Notes under the pieces: model-generated
The model's database searches: none
Told to the model about the DNA's origin: nothing
Seen by the model: only the letters and a program-made list of their open reading frames with translations
From: Acidobacteriota bacterium
Lineage (GTDB): Bacteria; Acidobacteriota; UBA4820; DSQY01
NCBI GenBank assembly: GCA_049968315.1
Contig: JBMFRA010000008.1
Coordinates: forward strand, 662 to 64,661
DNA length: 64,000 nt
Reading direction: 5' to 3'
Translations under genes and position numbers: made by a program
Shown: in pieces, positions 2,891 to 32,469 of the stretch
Layout of the letters: each line of letters begins with the position of its first letter
How positions within the stretch are numbered: the first letter of the stretch is position 1

Positions 2891-3818
2891 GGTGCTCCTC
2901 CCCGTTCTTCTCCAGGACGTCGAGGAAGACCCGCTCCAGGGAGGTGGCCTCCCGGACGAGCCGGGTGATGCCGCCCTCCACCCGCCGGCCCAGGGCGAAG
3001 ACCGCCTGCAGGGTCTCCCCGGGGGGAAGGACCACCCGGAAGAGGCCGCGCCGTCCTTCCTCCACGGTGTACCCGGCCTCCCGGAGGGCCCCCACGAAGG
3101 CGGCCCCGTCGCCCTCCCACTGGACCAGAAAGTGCTGGGCCTCGGCCCGGGTCCAGTCCTCCACGGAGGCGTCCCTCAGGAGTTGGCCTCGGTGGAGGAT
3201 GAGGACCCGCGAGCATACCGCCTCCACGTCCTTCAGGATGTGGGTGCACAGGAGGAGGCTCTTTCCCGCCTCGGCGAGGTCCTTGAGGAGGGCCAGCATC
3301 TCCTCCCGGCCCACCGGGTCCATGCCGGAGGTGGGCTCGTCCAGCAGGAGGAGGTCGGGGTCGTGGACCAGCGCCCCGGCCAGCTTCAGCCGCTGCTGCA
3401 TACCGGTGGAGTAGGTCTCCACGTTCCGGTACCGGATCTCCCCCAGGCCCACGAACTGGAGCACCTCGTGGGCCCGCTCCACCGCCGCGTTCCGCCGAAG
3501 GCCCGAGATCTCCCCCAGGAGGGCCACCCAGGCGACGCCGCTGAGGCCCGGACGGACCCCTTCCCGCTCGGGAACGTACCCCACCCGGTCGCGGAGGGCC
3601 GCCCCAGCCCCCTGGAGGGAGCCCCCCGCCCGGAGGGTCACCGAACCGCCAGCCGGCGGCACGAGGCCCAGTACGGCCCGGATCAGGGTGGACTTGCCCG
3701 CTCCGTTGGGGCCCAAGAGCCCCACCGCACCGCCGTCCAGTGCGAAGGTGACCCCCCGGAGGGCCTCCCGCTTTCCGTACCGGACGCGTAGATCCTGGAC
3801 CTCCAACATCCCGCCCAT
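2877..3818 (-). CDS. ABC transporter ATP-binding protein
   Basis: Walker A GPNGAGKST, signature YSTGMQQR and Walker B LLLDEPTSGMDP. Confidence 0.88.
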   Translation of the reverse strand: MGGMLEVQDLRVRYGKREALRGVTFALDGGAVGLLGPNGAGKSTLIRAVLGLVPPAGGSVTLRAGGSLQGAGAALRDRVGYVPEREGVRPGLSGVAWVALLGEISGLRRNAAVERAHEVLQFVGLGEIRYRNVETYSTGMQQRLKLAGALVHDPDLLLLDEPTSGMDPVGREEMLALLKDLAEAGKSLLLCTHILKDVEAVCSRVLILHRGQLLRDASVEDWTRAEAQHFLVQWEGDGAAFVGALREAGYTVEEGRRGLFRVVLPPGETLQAVFALGRRVEGGITRLVREATSLERVFLDVLEKNGEEHRAGL

Positions 3819-3827
3819 GCCCCTTCC

Positions 3828-5387
3828 TTACGGGGGAGCCGTCCCCGAGGTTTCAGGGGAAGGGGGAGGACTCCGCCGAAGCTTGCGGTAGGCCTTCCGA
3901 AAGCGCCCCAAACGCTCCCCAAGGTCCGCCCGGGCGGCGGCCGCCGACTGCCAGAACCCCTGGAGGAGCGCGCCGGCGGCCAGGAGCTCCCCCTCCGGCG
4001 CCCTCCCCGCCTCCACGGCCCTGCGAAGCCGGACGGCGGCCACCACCGCGTCCTGGTGGGCGCCGAGGGCCTCCTGGAGGTCCACCGCCGCGGCGATGAG
4101 GTCCTCCGCCTCCTGGGGAAGGACCTCTCGAAAGAACTCGGCGGCGTACCGGGCCCGCTTGAAGAGAATGCGCAGGCGGTGGAGGGCTTCGGGGGCGGGG
4201 TCGGGTCCCAGGGCCTCCGCCGCCGCCAGGGCCCGTTTCCCCGTTCGGCGGACCAGCCGGCGGGCGGCCTCCGAGGTCCTCTCCGCCGCCGCCCCCCGCG
4301 GCCTGGAGGGCGGGGGGGAGAGGACCAGCCGGCGGATTCGCTGGAGCAGCCGGTGAAAGCGGCGGCTGGAGAGGCCCTCCCTCAAGGCTTCCAGCGCCCC
4401 GGCCCGCTCCCCCGCCACCACCGCCCGCAGGGTATCGGGCCCCGGGAGCCCGGGGGGGAGCCTTGCCGCCTGCCGGTCCCAGGCCGCAAGGAAGACGTCC
4501 AGGTCCCGCACCTCCCCCAGGAGGCCCGCCGCCCACCGCAGCTCGGCCCTAAGGGACTCGGACCGCCGCGGCCCCAGGGCGGGCCCCAGTAGGCGCAGGA
4601 GGGTGCGGGCCCGCCGGGCGGCCACCCGCGCGTCGTGGACGAACTCGGGGTGAAGGTCCCCCAGGGCCCAGGGGACGTTGGCCTCCAGGCGGGAGAGCTG
4701 GCGTCCCAGGAGCCGCCTTCCGGCGGCGGAGAGGGGCTCCTCCGGCCGGAGGGGGCTCTCCGCCCGCGCCTCCCGGGAGGGATCCCCGGGGCCTTGCCCC
4801 CGCCGCAGCTGGGAAGCGAGGTCCCCCTCCGCCGGCTTGAGGCCGGCGCGGTCCCGGAGCAGGACCTCCAGATGGCCGAGGCTCGCCGCTCCTTCCGCGG
4901 AAGCCGCCGCCACCTGGAGCAGCGACGGAACCCCGCCACCCTCCCGGGGCGCGGGGGCCTGGACCTCCGCCCGAAGGGGCCTTCCCGTGGGGGAGCGGAG
5001 GGTGAAGGAGCGGATCCGGAGGTGCGCCGCCGCCAGGGGGACGAGGGGTTTCGCCCCCAGGAGCCCCCCCCGGCCCGCCGGGACCTCCCAGGAGGCGGGG
5101 TCCAGCACGGGGCCAAAGGGGGCCTTCCCCATCCCCCGGGCCAGATCCTCCTCCCGGCCCGAGGGGTGGACGAGGACGAGGCGCCAGGCCTCCCGCTCCT
5201 CCCACAGGAGCAGGCGCAGGCCTTGCCGGCCCAGCCGGCCGTCGGCGGTGTCCCAGAAGACCGCTCGCCCCGAGACCGACCCCGAGGGCGTGAGGCGGTA
5301 CCCCGCGGCGGCGAGGTGCCTCCGGGCCCGCTTCCACCCGGCCCCGCCGACTTCGAAGCGGAGGGGCGGCGGCTCAGGGGTCGTCAT
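3828..5387 (-). CDS. CYTH-domain plus CHAD-domain protein (inorganic triphosphatase / polyphosphate-granule associated, YgiF-like architecture)
   Basis: The N-terminal about 200 aa resemble the CYTH triphosphate tunnel fold (EVGGAGWK start). The C-terminal half is helical with His/Arg-rich motifs (HDARVAARRARTLLRLL, LHRLRILFKRARYAAEFF) typical of CHAD. Confidence 0.65.
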   Translation of the reverse strand: MTTPEPPPLRFEVGGAGWKRARRHLAAAGYRLTPSGSVSGRAVFWDTADGRLGRQGLRLLLWEEREAWRLVLVHPSGREEDLARGMGKAPFGPVLDPASWEVPAGRGGLLGAKPLVPLAAAHLRIRSFTLRSPTGRPLRAEVQAPAPREGGGVPSLLQVAAASAEGAASLGHLEVLLRDRAGLKPAEGDLASQLRRGQGPGDPSREARAESPLRPEEPLSAAGRRLLGRQLSRLEANVPWALGDLHPEFVHDARVAARRARTLLRLLGPALGPRRSESLRAELRWAAGLLGEVRDLDVFLAAWDRQAARLPPGLPGPDTLRAVVAGERAGALEALREGLSSRRFHRLLQRIRRLVLSPPPSRPRGAAAERTSEAARRLVRRTGKRALAAAEALGPDPAPEALHRLRILFKRARYAAEFFREVLPQEAEDLIAAAVDLQEALGAHQDAVVAAVRLRRAVEAGRAPEGELLAAGALLQGFWQSAAAARADLGERLGRFRKAYRKLRRSPPPSPETSGTAPP

Positions 5388-6108
5388 CGGAGGCTTTCCG
5401 GCCCTCGGCGAAGGCCTCGACCCCCCGGGCCCCCGCCCGCCGTTCCCGGAGGTCCCGCACCACCCGCTCCACGGGGTAGGTGAAGCGGACGATCTGCGCC
5501 CGGGCGCGGCCTCCCTGGAATTGGGCCACGGCGAAGGCTCCCCGGGGGTCGCCGTCCACCGGCTTGCCCACCGACCCGCAGTTCACCACCAGGACCCCCC
5601 CCACGCGGCGGGTGAAGGGGAGGTGGGAGTGGCCGCAGACGAGGACGTCCGGGCGCGCGCCGCCGAGGAACGCCTCCAGGGCCGCCGCCGTGAGGCTCGG
5701 GTAGAGGTAGTCGGTGTCCTTCCGCGGGCTCCCGTGGACCACCAGGACCCGATGCCCCTGGAGGTCCAACTCCAGGCGCTCGGGAAGGCCCTCGAGAAAG
5801 CGCCGCTCCTCCTCCCCGAGCTGGAGGGCTGTCCAGGCCAGGGGGCCGAGGTTCCTCTTCGGAAGAAGCTTTCGGAGTTTCCGGGGGCTCTCGGCCAGGA
5901 GGCCGAGGACCTTCCGCTCCACGTTCCCCCGGATGCAGAGGACGCCCCGCTCCTTCAGGAGCCTCAGCACCTCCACGGGGTGGGGGCCGAAGCCGACCAG
6001 GTCCCCGGCGCAGACCACCCGTTCCGCCCCCCGCCGCCTGGCGGCCTCCAGGGCCCGCCACAGGGCGGGGAAGTTGGCGTGGACGTCGGAGAGGAAGAGG
6101 ACCTTCAC
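5374..6108 (-). CDS. Calcineurin-like metallophosphoesterase (YfcE/MJ0936 family)
   Basis: Motifs LSDVHAN, GDLVGFGP, GNVE and GHSH. ATGA-type start/stop overlap with the upstream gene. Confidence 0.8.
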   Translation of the reverse strand: MKVLFLSDVHANFPALWRALEAARRRGAERVVCAGDLVGFGPHPVEVLRLLKERGVLCIRGNVERKVLGLLAESPRKLRKLLPKRNLGPLAWTALQLGEEERRFLEGLPERLELDLQGHRVLVVHGSPRKDTDYLYPSLTAAALEAFLGGARPDVLVCGHSHLPFTRRVGGVLVVNCGSVGKPVDGDPRGAFAVAQFQGGRARAQIVRFTYPVERVVRDLRERRAGARGVEAFAEGRKASDDDP

Positions 6109-6473
6109 GGCAGCAGGACCTCCTCCAGCGCCTCCAAGAAGGCCTCCAGCCGGGCGAGGTCCTTGACCCGCCCCTTGGAAGGCTTCACCTTGAGGGCCGC
6201 GGCGGCCCGCCGGAGGCGCCTCAGCCGCTCCGCCGGGGGAAGGACGGGGGGCTCGGGGAGCCCTTCTCCGGTGAGGGCCTGGAAGAGGGCCGCGGCCCGT
6301 CCCTCCAGGCGGGCGGAGACCGCTTCCCCCACCTCCCGCACGAGGCCCCGGGCCCGCTCCACCTCCCGGGCCAGGGCCAGGGCCTCCTCCCGCTTCCCAG
6401 GCCGCGCCTTGGGTTTCTTGCCCGGGAGCCCCTTCCCGGTCTCCCGCTTCACCGGGTCGGTTCGTTCGGCCAT
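6105..6473 (-). CDS. Hypothetical protein (122 aa, Lys/Arg-rich N-terminus, helical)
   Basis: ORF packed between the Tmk-like gene (4-nt gap) and the metallophosphoesterase (4-nt overlap). No recognizable domain; coding status supported only by operon packing. Confidence 0.45.
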   Translation of the reverse strand: MAERTDPVKRETGKGLPGKKPKARPGKREEALALAREVERARGLVREVGEAVSARLEGRAAALFQALTGEGLPEPPVLPPAERLRRLRRAAAALKVKPSKGRVKDLARLEAFLEALEEVLLP

Positions 6474-6477
6474 GGCG

Positions 6478-7176
6478 TCACCCCCGTCCGTCGGCCAGCA
6501 CCCGCCGCACCCCCTCCACCAGGTCCCGGTGGATGGCGGGGGCCGTGCGGTTTCCGTTCACCACCGTAAAGCCGTAGGGGCCGGCCATCCGCTGGAACTC
6601 CCGGCGGATCCGGCGCTGGTAGGCGAGAAAGCTCTGGAACCAGTCCCTCCCCAGGCCCAGGTCCATTCCCGATTCCCAGTAGTCCAGTTGGTCCCGGGAC
6701 TCGAAGGTGCGCTCGATGAGGGTGGTCATGGAGACGGAGAGGAAGAAGACCACGTCGGGCACGAGGGCCATGCCGTAGAGGGACCGCAGCCACTCGGCGT
6801 CGGCCCCCCGGACCAGGTCCCGCACCATCAGGGTGTAGATGTACCGGTCCGCCAGCACCACGAAGCCCGCCCGGAGGGAGGGGCAGATGATGTTTTCCAG
6901 CTGGTCGTAGAAGTCGGTGGCGTAGAAGAGGCTCATGGTCCTGGGGCTGAGGACGTTGCCCTGCTTGGCCCGCTCCAGCTCGGGACCCACCAGGGGGGAT
7001 CGCTTGAGGCCCACCTGGGCCACGGCGTACCCCTGCTCCTCCAGCCACTGGGAGAGGAGGGAGACGTGGGTGGACCGGCCGGAGGAGTCGGGGCCCTCCA
7101 CCACCACCAGCCATCCGGACAGCTTGGAGAGGTCCACCCCCGCCGGGGGGTGGGTGTAGCACCGCTTGCCGCTCAT
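6478..7176 (-). CDS. Thymidylate kinase (dTMP kinase)-family P-loop kinase, paralog 2, with degenerate Walker A (GPDSSGRST)
   Basis: Start MSGKRCY at 7176 with ATGA overlap to the upstream paralog stop. Motifs VVVEGPDSSGRST, YATDFYD, LADRYIYT and shared YWESGMDLGL. Confidence 0.6.
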   Translation of the reverse strand: MSGKRCYTHPPAGVDLSKLSGWLVVVEGPDSSGRSTHVSLLSQWLEEQGYAVAQVGLKRSPLVGPELERAKQGNVLSPRTMSLFYATDFYDQLENIICPSLRAGFVVLADRYIYTLMVRDLVRGADAEWLRSLYGMALVPDVVFFLSVSMTTLIERTFESRDQLDYWESGMDLGLGRDWFQSFLAYQRRIRREFQRMAGPYGFTVVNGNRTAPAIHRDLVEGVRRVLADGRG

Positions 7177-7859
7177 CGTGCGTACCTCTTGTGGAAGAAG
7201 GCCAGGTCCACCTTCTCCGCCAGGATCTTCCGGATCCACTTCTGTTGGGCGTGGACGGGGAGGGTGGCGTCCACCTCCGTGAATCCGAACTCCGGCACCA
7301 TGGCGAGGTACTGTTCCAGGACCCGCCCCTGGAAGATCCGGAAGCTCTCCTGGGGGTCCGGGTGGAGGCCCAGGTCCATCCCCGCTTCGAAGTACTTGAG
7401 CTTGGGTCTCCCTTCCAGGATGCGCCCCAGGGCCGTCACCAGGGGCAGGCGGAAGAAGAAGACCACGTCCGGCGGAACGGCGAAGCTGTAGAGGCGGCGC
7501 AGCCAGCCGCCGTCGCAACCCCGCACCGCGTCCCGGGCGAAGGAGGTGTAGATGTACCGGTCGCAGAGGACCAGGTACCCCGCCCGCAGGAGGGGATGGA
7601 TCTGGCGCTCGTACCGGTCGGCGAAGTCGGTGGCGTGGATGAGGCTGAAGGTGGTGGGGGTGAGGAGCTGCCGCTTCTTGCCCTTCCGCGTGGCCTCCCG
7701 CACCAGGACCGAGGAGTTCCACTCGGAGAAGAAGACCCGGTACCCCCGGGCACGGAGCCACTGGTTCAGGAGGTGGATCTGGGTGGACTTTCCCGACCCG
7801 TCCAGCCCCTCCACGGCGATGAGCCGGCCGGGGTAGGCGTGCTCCGGTGTTCCGTTCAT
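7173..7859 (-). CDS. Thymidylate kinase (dTMP kinase)-family P-loop kinase, paralog 1 (canonical Walker A)
   Basis: Start MNGTPEH at 7859 overlapping the ppx stop (ATGA). Motifs IAVEGLDGSGKSTQ, HATDFADRY, LCDRYIYTS and YFEAGMDLGL. Confidence 0.65.
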   Translation of the reverse strand: MNGTPEHAYPGRLIAVEGLDGSGKSTQIHLLNQWLRARGYRVFFSEWNSSVLVREATRKGKKRQLLTPTTFSLIHATDFADRYERQIHPLLRAGYLVLCDRYIYTSFARDAVRGCDGGWLRRLYSFAVPPDVVFFFRLPLVTALGRILEGRPKLKYFEAGMDLGLHPDPQESFRIFQGRVLEQYLAMVPEFGFTEVDATLPVHAQQKWIRKILAEKVDLAFFHKRYAR

Positions 7860-9502
7860 GGGGCTCCCTCCACCACCGAAACCTCCACCGCCGTTCCGAA
7901 GGTCCGCCGGAAGAGGTCGGCCTTTCGCTTCATGGACCAGCCCTCCAGCAGGAGGTCGCCCTCCCCCTCTACCGCCAGGCGAACGTGCCCTTCCTGGAAG
8001 GAGACCTCCACCCGGTGGACCCGCTGGCGGTGCTCCCGGTCCAGGGCGTCGGCCAGCCGAAGGAGGGAAGCGAGGACCCGCACGGTGCGCCTCTCCCGGC
8101 GGTCCAGGAGGGCGAAGGACTCGTGCTGGGGTTTGGGGGGACTCCTCCGGTGGTACCGTGCCACGTTGGCCACCAGGAGGGTCTCCCGGGGCGAGAAACC
8201 GGCCAGCTCGCTGTTGGCGATGAGGTAGAGGCTGTGCTTGTGGTGCCGGTTGTAGCTCACGAAGGTGCCCACGTCGTGGAGAAGGGCCGCCGCCTGCAGG
8301 ACGGCCCGTTCCGGCGGCCCGAGCCGGTGGAGCTCCTTCGTCTGGTCGAAGAGGGAGAGGGCCAGGCGGGAGACGTGGCGGCCGTGGCTCTCGTCGAAGC
8401 CGTACTTCCGCCCCACGGGAAGGGCCGCCGCCTCCACCTCGGCCTCGCTCCGGCCCCCCCCGTCTCCTCCCCCCCAGGCTTCGGCCAGTTCCAGGACCAC
8501 CCCCTCCCGCAGGCCCACGAAGGGGACCCTTATCTCCCGGGCCCCCGCCAGGCGGGCCAGGCGAAGGTACACCAGCGCCGCGGGAAGGATGACGTCCGCC
8601 CGGTCCTCGCGGATGCCCAGGGTCTCGATCCGCTCCCGGTAACCCAGGGCCGCCAGCCGGCCCGTCAGGCGCTCCAGGACGCCGACCCCCAGCCTCGCCA
8701 CACCGCCCTTCTCCCGTGGGCAGAGGGCCAGGGCGGCCAGGGCTTCGGCGTTCCCCCCGGTGGCGATGCAGCCGAGGTTCATTCCCGAGAGGTCCCGGTG
8801 GAGGCGGAGGGTCCCCACGTACTCCGACAGGAGGCGCGGCAGGCGCCCGGCGTCGTCGGCGGCGGCGGCCAGCTCCTCCAGGAGGCGGACGGCCCCCATG
8901 GTATGTGACTCGCTCCAGAGGATCCCCGCCCGGTCGGCGAGGGCCACCTCCACGCTCCCCCCCCCCACGTCCACCAAGAGCCACCGCCGGGTTCCCAGGT
9001 CCATCCGGTGCTTCACCGCCCGGTAGACCAACCGTGCCTCCTCCGATCCGCCGATGGGTTCCAGCCGGATGCCGGCGCGCTCCCGGACCTCGGCGAGGAA
9101 GGCCTCCCCGTTCCGGCTTTCCCGCACCGCACTGGTGGCCACGGCGCGGTAGCGGGCGATGCCCAGGTCCTCCATCCGGCGCCGGTACTCCGAGAGGACC
9201 GCCACCGCCCTGGCGGCGGCCTGGCCATCGAGCTCCCCCCGGACGAAGACCCCGTGCCCCAGCCTCACGGGGCTTCGGCCCGCCTCCAGGACGTCGCAGG
9301 TGCCGCCGGAGAGGAAGCGGGCGGCGAGGAACCGGATGGCGTTGGATCCCACGTCCAGGGCGGCGCACCGAAACTCTCCACCCCCCAAGCCCCCCGCCGG
9401 GGGTGCCTCCGCCGGGATTTTTCCGCCGCTGGCTTTCCGAAGCCTGGCCGCCAAGGATGCCTCCCCCGCCCTTCTGCCCGATCTTCGTTTCTTTTTCAAC
9501 AT
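7856..9502 (-). CDS. ppx: Exopolyphosphatase / guanosine pentaphosphate phosphohydrolase (Ppx/GppA N-terminal domain + HD domain)
   Basis: FRCAALDVGSNAIRF and LLVDVGGGSVEV (ASKHA-fold Ppx/GppA motifs). The C-terminal part has LLHDVG ... HHKHS (HD domain). The start chosen is MLKKKRR at 9502; an upstream in-frame Met at about 9577 is an alternative. Confidence 0.85.
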   Translation of the reverse strand: MLKKKRRSGRRAGEASLAARLRKASGGKIPAEAPPAGGLGGGEFRCAALDVGSNAIRFLAARFLSGGTCDVLEAGRSPVRLGHGVFVRGELDGQAAARAVAVLSEYRRRMEDLGIARYRAVATSAVRESRNGEAFLAEVRERAGIRLEPIGGSEEARLVYRAVKHRMDLGTRRWLLVDVGGGSVEVALADRAGILWSESHTMGAVRLLEELAAAADDAGRLPRLLSEYVGTLRLHRDLSGMNLGCIATGGNAEALAALALCPREKGGVARLGVGVLERLTGRLAALGYRERIETLGIREDRADVILPAALVYLRLARLAGAREIRVPFVGLREGVVLELAEAWGGGDGGGRSEAEVEAAALPVGRKYGFDESHGRHVSRLALSLFDQTKELHRLGPPERAVLQAAALLHDVGTFVSYNRHHKHSLYLIANSELAGFSPRETLLVANVARYHRRSPPKPQHESFALLDRRERRTVRVLASLLRLADALDREHRQRVHRVEVSFQEGHVRLAVEGEGDLLLEGWSMKRKADLFRRTFGTAVEVSVVEGAP

Positions 9503-9598
9503 AGCGGTTTTTCTCTTCCGAAGCAATCGGGGCTCCCCTTTCCACCCCTTTCCTTTCCCGGCGATCGGGCGCATACTGAACCGGATGTGAAGGAAGGG

Positions 9599-9632
9599 AT
9601 ATCCACAACCTGTGGAAATAACTGTGAATAAA
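9599..9632. promoter_or_regulatory. Three DnaA boxes immediately upstream of dnaA start (ATATCCACA; TGTGGAAAT = ATTTCCACA rc; TGTGAATAA = TTATTCACA rc)
   Basis: Direct match to the TTATCCACA consensus with 1 to 2 mismatches each, at 9599-9607, 9611-9619 and 9624-9632. The last box ends 2 nt before the dnaA ATG. Confidence 0.7.
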
Positions 9633-9634
9633 CC

Positions 9635-10975
9635 ATGAGCCACCGCCTGTGGGCCCAGATCCTGGAAAAGGTGAAATCGAGGGTACCGGAGAGCACCTAC
9701 GCCTCCTGGTTCAAGCCTCTCAAGCTCCTTCGTGTGGAGGAGTCCCAGGTGGTTCTCCTGACCCCCAACCCCCTCTTCCGGGAGTGGCTCGAGAGCCACT
9801 ACCGGGGGGTTTTGGAGGAGGCCGCCGCCGACGCCGGCCACCCTGGGCTGGCCATCTCCTTCGAGGACGGCCCCGGGGAGGAACTGGTCCTCCAGCCGGA
9901 GCCCGCCCCCAAGGCCTCCTCCCGGAAGGAGAAGGCCCCTCCCGCCTCCTCCCCTTCCGATCCCCTCTTCAACCCCCAGTACCGCTTCGACACCTTCGTG
10001 GTGGGCCCCTCCAACCGCTTCGCCTTCGCGGCCTGCCTGGCCGTGGCCCAGAATCCCTCCCGCTCCTACAATCCTCTCTACATTTACGGCGGCGTCGGTC
10101 TCGGAAAGACCCACCTCATGCAGTCCATCGGGGCGGAGATCAAGCGGAACAACCCCGATCTGAAGGTCTGCTACCTGTCCACCGAGCGGTTCATGAACGA
10201 GATGATCGCGTCCATCACCCACCGGAAGCAGCACGAGTTCCGGGAGCGCTACCGCCGGGCCGACGTGATCCTCCTCGACGACGTCCAGTTCCTTTCGGGC
10301 AAGGAGGGGACCCAGGAGGAACTCTTCCACACCTTCAACGCCCTCCACGAATCCCAGCGCCAGATCGTCCTCTCCTCTGACTGCCCTCCCCGGGATCTGC
10401 ACAGCATCGAGGAGCGCCTGCGCTCCCGCTTCGAGTGGGGCCTCATCGCCGACATCCAGCCCCCGGAGCTGGAGACCAAGGTGGCCATCCTGTACAAGAA
10501 GGCCGAGGCCTACCGGGTCGCCCTCCCGGAAGAGGTGGCCCTCTTCATCGCCGGGCGCATCAAGAGCAACATCCGGGAGCTGGAGGGTTGCCTCCTCCGG
10601 CTCATCGCCTTCTCCTCCTTCAAGGGCCTTCCCATCACCGTGGACCTGGCACGGGAGACCTTCGAGAGCCTCTTCAAGGAGGACGGCCGGGCCCCCACCA
10701 TCGAGTCCATCCAGCGCCACGTGGCGGCCTACTACAAGATGCGCCTCCAGGACCTCAAGGCCCGTACCAACAAGGCCAGCATCGTGCTGCCGCGCCAGGT
10801 GGCCATGTACCTCTGCAAGGAGCTGACCTCCTGCTCGCTGCCGGAGATCGGCCGGAAGTTCGGGGGCAAGCACCACACCACCGTCCTCCACGCCATCCGG
10901 AAGATCGACGAGCAAGCCAAGAAGGATCCCAACCTTCAACAGGCTATCCACAACCTAGTTCGTTCCATTCGCTGA
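9635..10975 (+). CDS. dnaA: Chromosomal replication initiator protein DnaA
   Basis: Full-length DnaA with AAA+ Walker [11 protein letters not shown], sensor motifs and a C-terminal DNA-binding domain (HTTVLHA). ATG at 9635. Confidence 0.97.
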
Positions 10976-10989
10976 GGAAAGGGACGTTC

Positions 10990-11140
10990 GGTGGAAAAGG
11001 TGCCTTGGAAAAACTGTGGAAAAGCCTGGGGGTGTTTCCAGGGGGGTCTTTTCCTCGCCCTCCACGGAGTTCTCCACAGTACTCCGGCGACCTGCAACTT
11101 CGGCCCGCCGGGACCTCCGGTACTTTTCCACAGATCCACA
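10990..11140. promoter_or_regulatory. DnaA-box cluster in dnaA-dnaN intergenic region (candidate oriC part)
   Basis: Boxes TGTGGAAAA (11016-11024, rc TTTTCCACA), TTCTCCACA (11070-11078), TTTTCCACA (11124-11132) and AGATCCACA (11132-11140), plus weaker GGTGGAAAA (10990-10998). A CTATCCACA also sits at 10944-10952 inside the dnaA 3' end. Confidence 0.6.
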
Positions 11141-11183
11141 GCCCCTACTACGGCTACTGCCTCTATCTAAGGGGAGAGATCCT

Positions 11184-12307
11184 ATGGAGACGAGAATCGA
11201 AGCCCGGAGCCTCCTTTCCGAACTGACGCTGGCCCAGGGGATCGTCGAGTCCAAGGCCACCATTCCCATCCTGGCCAACTTTCTGCTGAGAACCACAGAA
11301 AACGCCTTGGAGATCGCCGCCTCGGACCTGGAGGTGACCCTCCGCTGCCGCTGCCCCGCGGAGATCCTGGAGGAGGGCGGCGTCACCGTTTCGGCGAAGA
11401 AGTTCTCCTCCCTCGTCCGGGCCTTTGCGGGCCTGGAGGGGCGGCTCTCCGTCAAGACGACGGCCCAGGGAAGGCTCTTCCTCCAGCCGGAGGGGGGGCG
11501 CCAGGAGTACCACCTGCAGACCCTTCCGCAAGAAGACTTCCCCACCCTTCTCTCCCCCGACGGGGGCAAGAGCCTGGAGCTCCCCATGGAGGCCCTCAAG
11601 CGGTGCATCTCCGAAGCCCTGGTCTCGGTGGGGGTGGAGGAGAGCCGCTTCTCGGTCCGGGGGGGGCTCCTGCTCCTGGAGAGCGGGCGCCTGGCCCTGG
11701 TTTCCACCGACTCCCACCGCCTGACCTACACCGAGTGGCTGGGCCCCGTGGGGGTGGAGGAGCCCATGCGCCTTCTCGTGCCCCGGAAGACCCTGACGGA
11801 GTTCCTCAAACTGGATGGGGAGGAGAAGGTCCGGGTCTCCTTCCGGGACAGCACCATCTTCCTGGAAACGGGAAACCGCCTTCTCTACAGCCGCCTCATG
11901 GACACCACCTTCCCGGCCTGGGAAAAGGTGATCCCCCAGGGTTCGGACAAGCTGGCGGTGATGAACCGGGCGGAACTCCAGGAGCGCCTGCGGCGGGTTT
12001 CCAACGTGGCGGAGTCCAAGACCCGGGCCGTGATCCTCTCCTTCGACCCGGCGGGGAGCCTCGAGGTCCTGGCGCGGAATGCCGAGACGGGGGACGAGGG
12101 GAGGGAGTACCTCTCCTGCGAGCGGTACGAGGGCGAGGCGGTCCAGCTCCTCTTCAACGCCGACTACATTCTGGACTTCCTGGGGGCCTGCTCCGAGGAG
12201 AAGGTCCGGATGGCCATGAAGGACGGGGAACACCAGGCCCTGCTGCAGCCGGTGCGCCCCGAGGGGGCTCCCCAGCACCAGTACGTCATCATGCCGTTGA
12301 GGTTTGA

Positions 12308-12311
<4 letters not shown>
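11184..12311 (+). CDS. dnaN: DNA polymerase III beta sliding clamp
   Basis: Start METRIEAR at 11184 preceded by AGGGGAGAG; the listed ORF start at 11016 is an upstream extension. Three-domain beta-clamp sequence. Confidence 0.93.
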
Positions 12312-18456: not shown

Positions 18457-18534
<78 letters not shown>

Positions 18535-20072: not shown

Positions 20073-20542
20073 AGCAGATTCCGCCGGAGGCGAGATCCGT
20101 TTTGCTTCGCCGGGCCTCCTCCGGTGGACCGTCCTTTCCGCCCCCGCGGTGCGGGGGTGGGGAGAGACGGAAACGGGAACCGGCAGCCGATCTCGAGGGG
20201 GCGCCCCGGAGATCCTCCGCCCAGGGGTCCCCGGGAGATCTCAACCAATAAAACTTGCTTAAAAAAGATAACCGCTTCTGGTTTTTCGTTCCGGATTCTT
20301 TCGCAGAAAAAAGTTTGTTCGACACCCGGAAAATCGGGAAGCGGGCCCCCCTTTGGAGGAGGGGCGGCTCTCCGTTTTCCCCGGCCCCCGGGGGCCGGGC
20401 CCCGGCGTTCCCCCGGCGGGACGGCTCGGGAAAGGGCCTGCCATACCCCCTCCCCATTCGCCTCCGAACCGCCTCTCGGGGCAACTGAAGGTTTGGGCCG
20501 ATTCCCGGGGAGGGGAGCCGCCGGGTTTCGAAGGGGGTGGGG

Positions 20543-20569
20543 AAAAAAAGGAGGGCCTTTCGGCCCTCC
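20543..20569 (-). terminator. Rho-independent terminator downstream of cold-shock gene
   Basis: On the minus strand GGAGGGCC-GAAA-GGCCCTCC is followed by TTTTTTT, 30 nt after the csp stop. Confidence 0.8.
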
Positions 20570-20600
20570 TCGGGGTTGTGTCCGTGCGTAGCGCGGGGCG

Positions 20601-20807
20601 TTACTCGCGGACCACCTTCACCTGGTCCGCCTGGGGACCCTTGTTCCCGTCCTTCACTTCGAAGGTGACGCGGTCGCCCTCCTGGAGCTTCCGGAAGCCG
20701 GTCCCCACGATGGCGCTGTAGTGGACGAAGACGTCCTTTCCCTCGTCCATGGTGATGAATCCGTACCCCTTCTTCTCGTCGAACCACTTCACCGTACCGC
20801 TGGCCAT
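20601..20807 (-). CDS. csp: Cold-shock protein (CspA family, S1-like cold-shock domain)
   Basis: 68 aa with the RNP1/RNP2 motifs ([15 protein letters not shown] ... VFVHYSAI). Confidence 0.95.
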
Positions 20808-32394: not shown

Positions 32395-32469
32395 TGGTGG
32401 GCGGTGGGGGATTCGAACCCGCGCCATCCTGCGTGTAAGGCAGGCGCTCTTCCGCTGAGCTAACCGCCC
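32395..32469 (-). tRNA. tRNA-Val (anticodon TAC)
   Basis: Reverse complement folds as acceptor GGGCGGT/ACCGCCC, D-arm GCTC..GAGC, anticodon stem CCTGC/GCAGG with loop CTTACAC, T-loop TTCGAAT and an encoded CCA. The T-stem has one C-C mismatch. Confidence 0.8.

Follow-up and report, generated by a model that had tools for sequence, protein, structure and literature searches.

Where, in relation to dnaA, does replication begin in this Acidobacteriota bacterium? The question is raised by a stretch of 64,000 nucleotides of contig JBMFRA010000008.1 (the window; ~70% GC), in which the original prediction placed a candidate oriC at 9481-9634, between dnaA and a divergently oriented Ppx/GppA-like gene (ppx), with three DnaA boxes abutting the dnaA start and an AT-rich tract serving as DNA unwinding element (DUE). 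The flagged segment is part of the replication-origin neighborhood. The best explanation, on balance a probable one, is that origin sequences lie to either side of dnaA and that this segment is their upstream DnaA-binding module, close to the gene. The unwinding element itself is more probably located in the dnaA-dnaN spacer than at 9481-9530: the former is a reasonably likely site, the latter an unlikely one.

The genes that frame the locus are the following:

7856-9502, minus strand: ppx, whose translation contains a DVGSNA motif; it diverges from dnaA, and its start is uncertain
9635-10975, plus strand: dnaA, 446 amino acids, with Pfam domains DnaA_N, Bac_DnaA and Bac_DnaA_C
11184-12311, plus strand: dnaN (beta clamp), with Pfam DNA_pol3_beta domains

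The genes recF, gyrB and gyrA (Pfam) follow dnaN on the plus strand, making ppx(-)/dnaA-dnaN-recF-gyrB-gyrA(+) the gene order at which orientation switches. The flip in orientation that had been claimed is borne out by the open reading frames (ORFs) that third-codon-position GC content (GC3) supports: every one of them left of 9.5 kb is on the minus strand and those between 9.6 and 20 kb are on the plus strand, as are almost all to ~46 kb. Sequence reading and pattern searches also find the three boxes exactly where they had been placed, at 9599-9631. Seven DnaA boxes with at most 1 mismatch to TTATCCACA are present in the window (1.72 are expected, and 0 of 100 shuffles reach 7). Six of these seven near-consensus boxes are concentrated at 9599-11132, within 1.5 kb around dnaA, and four of the six sit at the 3' side of the gene. 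Relaxing the match to ≤2 mismatches yields 62 boxes in the window, with 34.4 expected. An origin region is marked by a significant box cluster together with dnaA/dnaN adjacency at an orientation switch, and both are found here.

Nucleotide skew does not refine this placement. The cumulative GC skew, computed over the 64-kb window only, has its minimum at 16.4 kb, within a broad 12-24 kb trough. GC3 skew varies with the coding strand (+0.066 for minus-strand genes on the left, +0.094 for minus-strand genes and -0.083 for plus-strand genes on the right); that is, third-position skew reflects a C-rich sense strand and has the same sign for minus-strand genes on either side of dnaA. With only 1.6 kb between them, the two candidate sites cannot be told apart by GC skew within 64 kb, and any placement of the origin by skew in this lineage would require the whole chromosome.

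The 208-bp spacer between dnaA and dnaN contains a box cluster (10976-11183) that is larger than the upstream one. The original prediction had missed it; what survives of its candidate oriC is the origin neighborhood with its real boxes, and what is less well supported is the placement of the DUE. The elements of the downstream region are:

10944-10952, plus strand: DnaA box CTATCCACA, within the 3' end of dnaA
10990-10998, 11004-11012 and 11015-11023, minus strand: leftward boxes GGTGGAAAA, CTTGGAAAA and TGTGGAAAA, just past the dnaA stop codon
11070-11078, plus strand: central rightward box TTCTCCACA, which aligns with TTATCCACA/TTTTCCACA of relatives and contains one invariant column
11124-11132, plus strand: tandem box TTTTCCACA, putative anchor of a basal unwinding system (BUS), with 1 mismatch to TTATCCACA and 0 to the clade consensus
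11132-11140, plus strand: tandem box aGATCCACA (AGATCCACA), putative BUS anchor, with 2 mismatches
11141-11144, plus strand: GC cluster GCCC, between the tandem boxes and the trios
11145-11168, plus strand: trio array CTA CTA CGG CTA CTG CCT CTA TCT, putatively where DnaA loads onto single-stranded DNA and the strands open
11169-11178, plus strand: dnaN ribosome-binding site AAGGGGAGAG, directly after the trio array

The BUS, which comprises DnaA boxes and DnaA-trios, is reportedly described in work of Richardson (2016/2019) and Pelliciari (2021/2023). The downstream region resembles it in having tandem co-oriented boxes, a 12-bp spacer with a 4-bp GC cluster, 3'-GAT-5' trios nearest the box, and an initiator with conserved trio-capture residues. 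In particular, the box component (≤2 mismatches, preferably a co-oriented tandem) is present at 11124-11140, and the 12 bp between the first box and the first trio, GCCC included, are within the published limit of ≤16 bp (PMC8287927). The position and polarity of the array are those of the DnaA-trio motif (PMC8287927; PMC10721633). On the complementary strand it reads 3'-GAT GAT GCC GAT GAC GGA GAT AGA-5', with a central A in 5 of 7 trios and a perfect GAT in 4 of 7; the interruptions are CGG (trio 3) and CCT (trio 6). No second in-phase array with 3 or more YTA in 6 triplets occurs on either strand of the window (128 kb in all).

The DnaA protein aligns with B. subtilis DnaA 8btg over residues 5-441. 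B. subtilis residues required for trio capture, single-stranded DNA binding and oligomerization have been named (PMC10721633), and in the 8btg alignment the equivalents of Asn187, Ile190, Lys222/Glu223 and Arg264 are conserved, so that, by alignment, the protein has the initiator-specific motif residues and the arginine finger of a trio-competent initiator. Strand opening would most likely occur ~1.5 kb to the right of the flagged boxes, in the dnaA-dnaN spacer: an ATP-DnaA oligomer would extend from the tandem pair at 11124-11140 onto one strand, and the duplex would open just before dnaN, at the CTA-repeat (3'-GAT-5') array.

A weak terminator-like hairpin at 11025-11042 (CCTGGGGGTGTTTCCAGG, then GGGGTCTTTT to 11050) is located between the leftward and rightward box groups and may terminate dnaA transcription ahead of the unwinding module. 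Rfam and tRNA scans of 9300-11300 returned nothing.

Conservation of this arrangement was followed in a genome collection in which the closest DnaA relatives are Acidobacteriota metagenome-assembled genomes (MAGs; 62-68% identity) and the next are Thermoanaerobaculum and many Vicinamibacterales (~50-55%). Synteny of dnaA and dnaN, with a spacer of roughly 190-370 bp, is found in nearly all of them. Three of the closest loci (L001-L003) keep the leftward boxes, the central rightward box, the tandem pair, the GC cluster and the CTA repeats before the dnaN ribosome-binding site; L007 and L011 have a more degenerate version of the box-box-GC-CTA layout, and Bryobacterales loci a partial one. The leftward array has an aligned homologous counterpart in relatives, TGTGGAAAA...TGTnGAAAA...TGTGGAAAT. 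More distantly, L075, L078 and L079 have the BUS end of the layout at the same place. Trios number 5-6 without interruption in L001-L003 and L078, and the high-GC loci L075 and L079 have a CGN interruption in common with the window. In an alignment of eight spacer sequences, 4 of the 11 invariant columns (11146, 11147, 11149 and 11151) are within trios 1-3.

A Nitrospiraceae MAG (L073) provides an internal control. Its dnaA-dnaN spacer is just 24 bp long, and upstream of its dnaA, at ~3700-3990, there is a perfect box, TTATGCACA, with the trio array TTA CTA TTA CTA CTA TTA; the predicted unstable site is also upstream of dnaA. Because trio array and unstable site are both upstream in L073, related lineages can have the unwinding module upstream or downstream of dnaA.

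Paired box clusters flanking dnaA, with the duplex unwound on the downstream side only, are known from H. pylori, C. difficile and B. subtilis (PMC3479198; PMC7561715; PMC6669920). The clusters of B. subtilis (incAB/incC) and C. difficile (oriC1/oriC2) flank dnaA as they do here; the upstream one overlaps the promoter or leader of dnaA, and the downstream one, in the dnaA-dnaN spacer, terminates with co-oriented boxes followed by a GC cluster and, on the dnaA-sense strand, 5'-CTA-3' repeats. The trio array of the window closely resembles that of C. difficile oriC2, 5'-CACCTACTACTATTACTACTATGA-3' (PMC7561715). On the other hand, there are three upstream boxes here and many in the Firmicutes, the trios here are interrupted, no AT-rich tract comparable with the 27-mer follows them, the genome is ~70% GC, and its upstream side is predicted to be intrinsically less stable than the downstream side. 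The H. pylori locus has the same shape: an upstream high-affinity cluster, in the dnaA promoter region as is probable here also, was once taken as oriC, and unwinding occurs only downstream of dnaA. It differs in that dnaN is not beside dnaA and that binding to oriC2 requires supercoiling.

What, then, is the upstream module? Its elements are:

9572-9577, plus strand: candidate dnaA -10 element CATACT, weak, proposed from sequence reading only
9599-9607, plus strand: upstream box 1, ATATCCACA, 1 mismatch to TTATCCACA; the first of a conserved triple module
9611-9619, minus strand: upstream box 2, ATTTCCACA (the plus strand reads TGTGGAAAT), 1 mismatch to the clade consensus TTTTCCACA
9623-9631, minus strand: upstream box 3, TTATTCACA (the plus strand reads TGTGAATAA), ending 3 nt before the dnaA ATG (9635)

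Boxes 1 and 2 form an inverted pair (inverted repeat I6) and boxes 2 and 3 a tandem pair, each with a 3-bp spacer. (In E. coli, DnaA chromatin immunoprecipitation sequencing finds a genome-wide preference for tandem pairs spaced 2-3 bp; PMC11317965.) The module consensus among related loci is TTTTCCACA-NN-TGTGGAAAA-NNN-TGTGGAAAA, in the orientation +,-,-, and two Rokubacteria-like loci (L075 and L079) as well as L078 carry it in a TTATCCACA version. The three flagged boxes almost certainly represent real DnaA sites, because 72 of 81 related dnaA loci have the same +,-,- module <400 bp upstream of the gene, and the flagged boxes are very likely to function as such. The register of the boxes is nearly fixed: the offset of the first pair is 11 bp (64 loci) or 12 bp (8), and that of the second pair 12 bp (68) or 11 bp (4). 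The distance from module to dnaA start, in contrast, ranges from 1 to 282 nt across loci, with a gap of 1-4 nt in the clade of the window. A scan of metagenome contigs with the exact module pattern retrieved 120 contigs (L081 onwards), 91 of them with enough flanking sequence for assessment, and all 91 have dnaA downstream of the module and in the same orientation (at 2-221 nt in 90 and, by the same estimate, 1074 nt in one). No contig with at least 450 nt of room beyond the module is without dnaA. Across Acidobacteriota and in some neighboring lineages, the triple module keeps strictly to the 5' side of dnaA. A limited literature search found no description of a +,-,- three-box module with an 11/12-bp register, and a search on TTTTCCACA returned irrelevant papers only. 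As a single strand, the box 1/box 2 palindrome folds weakly (-4.8 kcal/mol, z = -1.65).

The module is probably a dnaA autoregulatory operator, a second half of the origin, or both. Autoregulation of dnaA through boxes in its promoter is established in several phyla (PMC8203912), and the dnaA operators of E. coli, B. subtilis, Streptomyces and mycobacteria have their boxes in the dnaA promoter or leader, as is probable here. Four of the close relatives (L002, L003, L007 and L011) have an extended -10 element, TGnTAGAAT/TAAAAT, 9-17 nt upstream of box 1, and the boxes would therefore occupy the transcribed leader. Unlike the known operators, box 3 is so close to the ATG that no room is left for a Shine-Dalgarno sequence. 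The autoregulatory operator is the most economical reading of the module, which may double as one half of a bipartite origin. DnaA bound at 9599-9631, downstream of the likely dnaA promoter and ahead of the start codon, would repress or tune dnaA transcription, and might contact downstream-bound DnaA by looping, in the manner of B. subtilis incAB/incC and H. pylori oriC1/oriC2. Vicinamibacterales loci (L005, L015, L024, L025 and others) have a leader of 100-220 nt between triple box and dnaA start, with recurring GGGGCGAAAG / GGCGAAGG, and a conserved TTTGGTCTCTCCCCAAAG-like segment upstream of box 1; these leader motifs, which are absent from the window, may be extra regulatory sites or RNA structure.

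Several observations weigh against an upstream operator paired with downstream opening. A sigma-70 promoter scan of 9300-11300, and so also of the DNA upstream of the three boxes, found no consensus promoter; the operator role is taken from the relatives for that reason. The downstream array fails the published BUS rule of three consecutive 3'-NAN-5' trios (PMC8287927): its longest run is 2, the two uninterrupted trios being followed by the GCC interruption. The tandem boxes at 11124 and 11132 share 1 base rather than being separated by 0-3 bp. The trios lead straight into the dnaN ribosome-binding site, at 45-50% GC, with no long AT-rich tract after them. Helical stability points the other way as well. 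In a simplified, single-run approximation of stress-induced duplex destabilization (SIDD), the DNA near dnaA that opens most easily in this genome is at 9479-9528 and 9571-9642, whichever of the three domain sizes and two values of sigma (-0.06 and -0.07) is used; at the former sigma, opening the most favorable run of the dnaA-dnaN spacer takes ~3.7 kcal/mol more, and that of the trio site ~4.8 kcal/mol more. (The corresponding SIDD prediction for H. pylori fitted its downstream DUE.) Finally, an upstream box at 9493, followed by GTT TTT CTC TTC, that is, four consecutive NTN triplets, passes a permissive published BUS pattern. In this genome, then, the predictions conflict: trio architecture points downstream and intrinsic instability upstream.

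The case for the ppx-dnaA spacer as the origin proper is made by the following elements:

9481-9530, no strand assigned: AT-rich, T-rich stretch, the proposed DUE, containing the ppx start codon (9500-9502, minus strand), a putative ppx ribosome-binding site GGAAGAG (minus strand) and a weak box
9493-9501, plus strand: weak box TTTTCAACA, followed by a 5-bp spacer, tagcg, and GTT TTT CTC TTC; 1 mismatch to the clade consensus

DnaA bound at 9599-9631, with the weak box, would open 9481-9530, and forks would diverge from there, at the exact point of the gene-orientation flip. The AT-richness on which the original prediction relied is confirmed: the 39-mer that it quoted (9481-9519) is 36% GC, and the 40-mer at 9488-9527 is, at 35% GC, the second lowest in the window (mean of 40-mers, 70.5% GC). 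Together with the highest predicted opening probability near dnaA, this gives the stretch the predicted instability of a DUE. It also favors an upstream origin that TTTTCAACA with its 5-bp spacer and NTN triplets satisfies the permissive pattern, that the same box type is found beside the predicted unwinding site in Vicinamibacterales, and that 7 of 66 related loci, L002 and L007 of the closest clade among them, have their least stable DNA upstream of dnaA by simplified SIDD. Phylum-wide, however, both instability and trio architecture are located in the dnaA-dnaN spacer; the least stable DNA is there in 54 of the 66 loci, usually 70-130 bp before dnaN. The upstream stretch has no counterpart in the five closest relatives (L001-L003, L007 and L011); the proposed DUE is not conserved because these relatives carry different, non-homologous upstream genes. 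The stretch coincides with features of ppx: the T-run is complementary to the purine-rich putative ribosome-binding site and to Lys/Arg codons, and codons 1-3 make up the weak box. The geometry is not that of known origins either, since box 1 (9599, plus strand) faces away from the tract, and the weak box, wrongly pointed, is outermost and aimed at strong boxes ~100 bp off. The permissive pattern has 13 matches in the window, which makes it weak evidence, and none of the four triplets here is GAT. An origin proper in the ppx-dnaA spacer is accordingly judged unlikely, and a shift of the unwinding site to that spacer in this genome is kept as a secondary possibility. The 9481-9530 stretch most plausibly comprises the ribosome-binding site, start codon and promoter region of ppx rather than an unwinding element. 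The 132-bp length given for the ppx-dnaA spacer is correct if the ppx ATG is at 9500-9502. The first ~43 ppx codons (MLKKKRRSGRRAGEASLAARLRK..., 9389-9502, minus strand) have a GC3 of ~70% vs ~90%, with GC1, GC2 and GC3 about equal, and because they lack the GC3 periodicity of the genome, the true start may be further in, at an internal TTG near 9388; the spacer would then be ~246 bp long.

If opening does occur in the dnaA-dnaN spacer, the remaining alternatives concern what the triple box does. It might be the indispensable half of a true bipartite origin, looping to the dnaA-dnaN complex for firing, with transcription control as a by-product; this is a tentative possibility. Clusters are present on both sides of dnaA here (9599-9631 and 10944-11140) and in nearly all relatives, with both conserved, and H. 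pylori and B. subtilis each require both halves in vivo, with loops visible by electron microscopy (PMC3479198; PMC6669920). The fixed 11/12-bp register, set against the variable 1-282 nt to dnaA, suggests selection on a DnaA complex rather than on one promoter geometry. Strict linkage to dnaA is equally expected of a pure operator, however, and in the clade of the window the boxes are placed as those of operators typically are, probably within the leader and overlapping the position of the ribosome-binding site. It is decidedly less likely that the module is an undescribed dedicated cis element, something beyond an ordinary operator, spread across Acidobacteriota and some Rokubacteria- and Nitrospirota-like lineages, in which a head-to-head DnaA dimer with a tandem partner would sense the nucleotide state of DnaA and couple dnaA expression to origin firing, in the manner of a DnaA-reactivating sequence (DARS) or a loop anchor. 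Highly improbable, finally, is a DARS-like element as such, in which the head-to-head pair and tandem third box would promote ADP release and regenerate ATP-DnaA beside dnaA. In box number and orientation the module fits the E. coli DARS core, three boxes of which I and II are opposed and II and III co-oriented (PMC6868365), although the sequence polarity of the head-to-head pair in DARS may differ from that in the module. The spacing does not agree, I-II being 5 bp apart in DARS, 3 bp here and 2 bp in most relatives (the spacings of the module are 2-3 bp throughout), nor does independence of dnaA: DARS loci are not tied to dnaA, whereas the module adjoins it in all 91 assessable metagenome contigs, for which reason a dispersed DARS-like element was rejected as the principal reading. 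The operator, possibly combined with an origin-half function, remains the preferred account of the module.

Some other features of the window deserve mention. Its most AT-rich 40-mer (20247-20286, 28% GC, AATAAAACTTGCTTAAAAAAGATAACCGCTTCTGGTTTTT) is in a 528-bp noncoding gap (20073-20600) that extends from a dihydrolipoyl-dehydrogenase-like gene (plus strand) to a cold-shock protein gene (20601-20807, minus strand). As an origin candidate this site was rejected, there being no DnaA box with ≤1 mismatch near the gap; the gap has no Rfam match either. The minus-strand genes at 3828-9502 comprise a CHAD-domain protein (3828-5387), a metallophosphoesterase (5374-6108), two consecutive thymidylate-kinase-like ORFs (within 6478-7761 and 7173-~7850) and, at the far end, ppx; a polyphosphate- or nucleotide-related cluster is possible. 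The tRNA-Asp gene (18457-18534, plus strand, between gyrA and the lpdA-like gene) and the tRNA-Val gene (32395-32469, minus strand) are the only Rfam and ARAGORN matches in the window.

A limited literature search found no paper characterizing oriC in Acidobacteriota. The locus belongs to a known class of origins that flank dnaA, and the triple-box module is the most interesting by-product of its analysis. Together with its relatives, the locus suggests that the phylum uses a widespread layout, with dnaA between two box clusters and a DnaA-trio module before dnaN. Automated or by-eye origin calls made from boxes and AT-rich DNA upstream of dnaA can choose the wrong side, as happened historically in H. 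pylori. The juxtaposition of upstream instability and downstream trios at 70% GC offers a small, clean test of which signal predicts the site of opening, and the conserved triple module is a compact, testable handle on dnaA autoregulation and its coupling to the origin in a phylum that is hard to culture.

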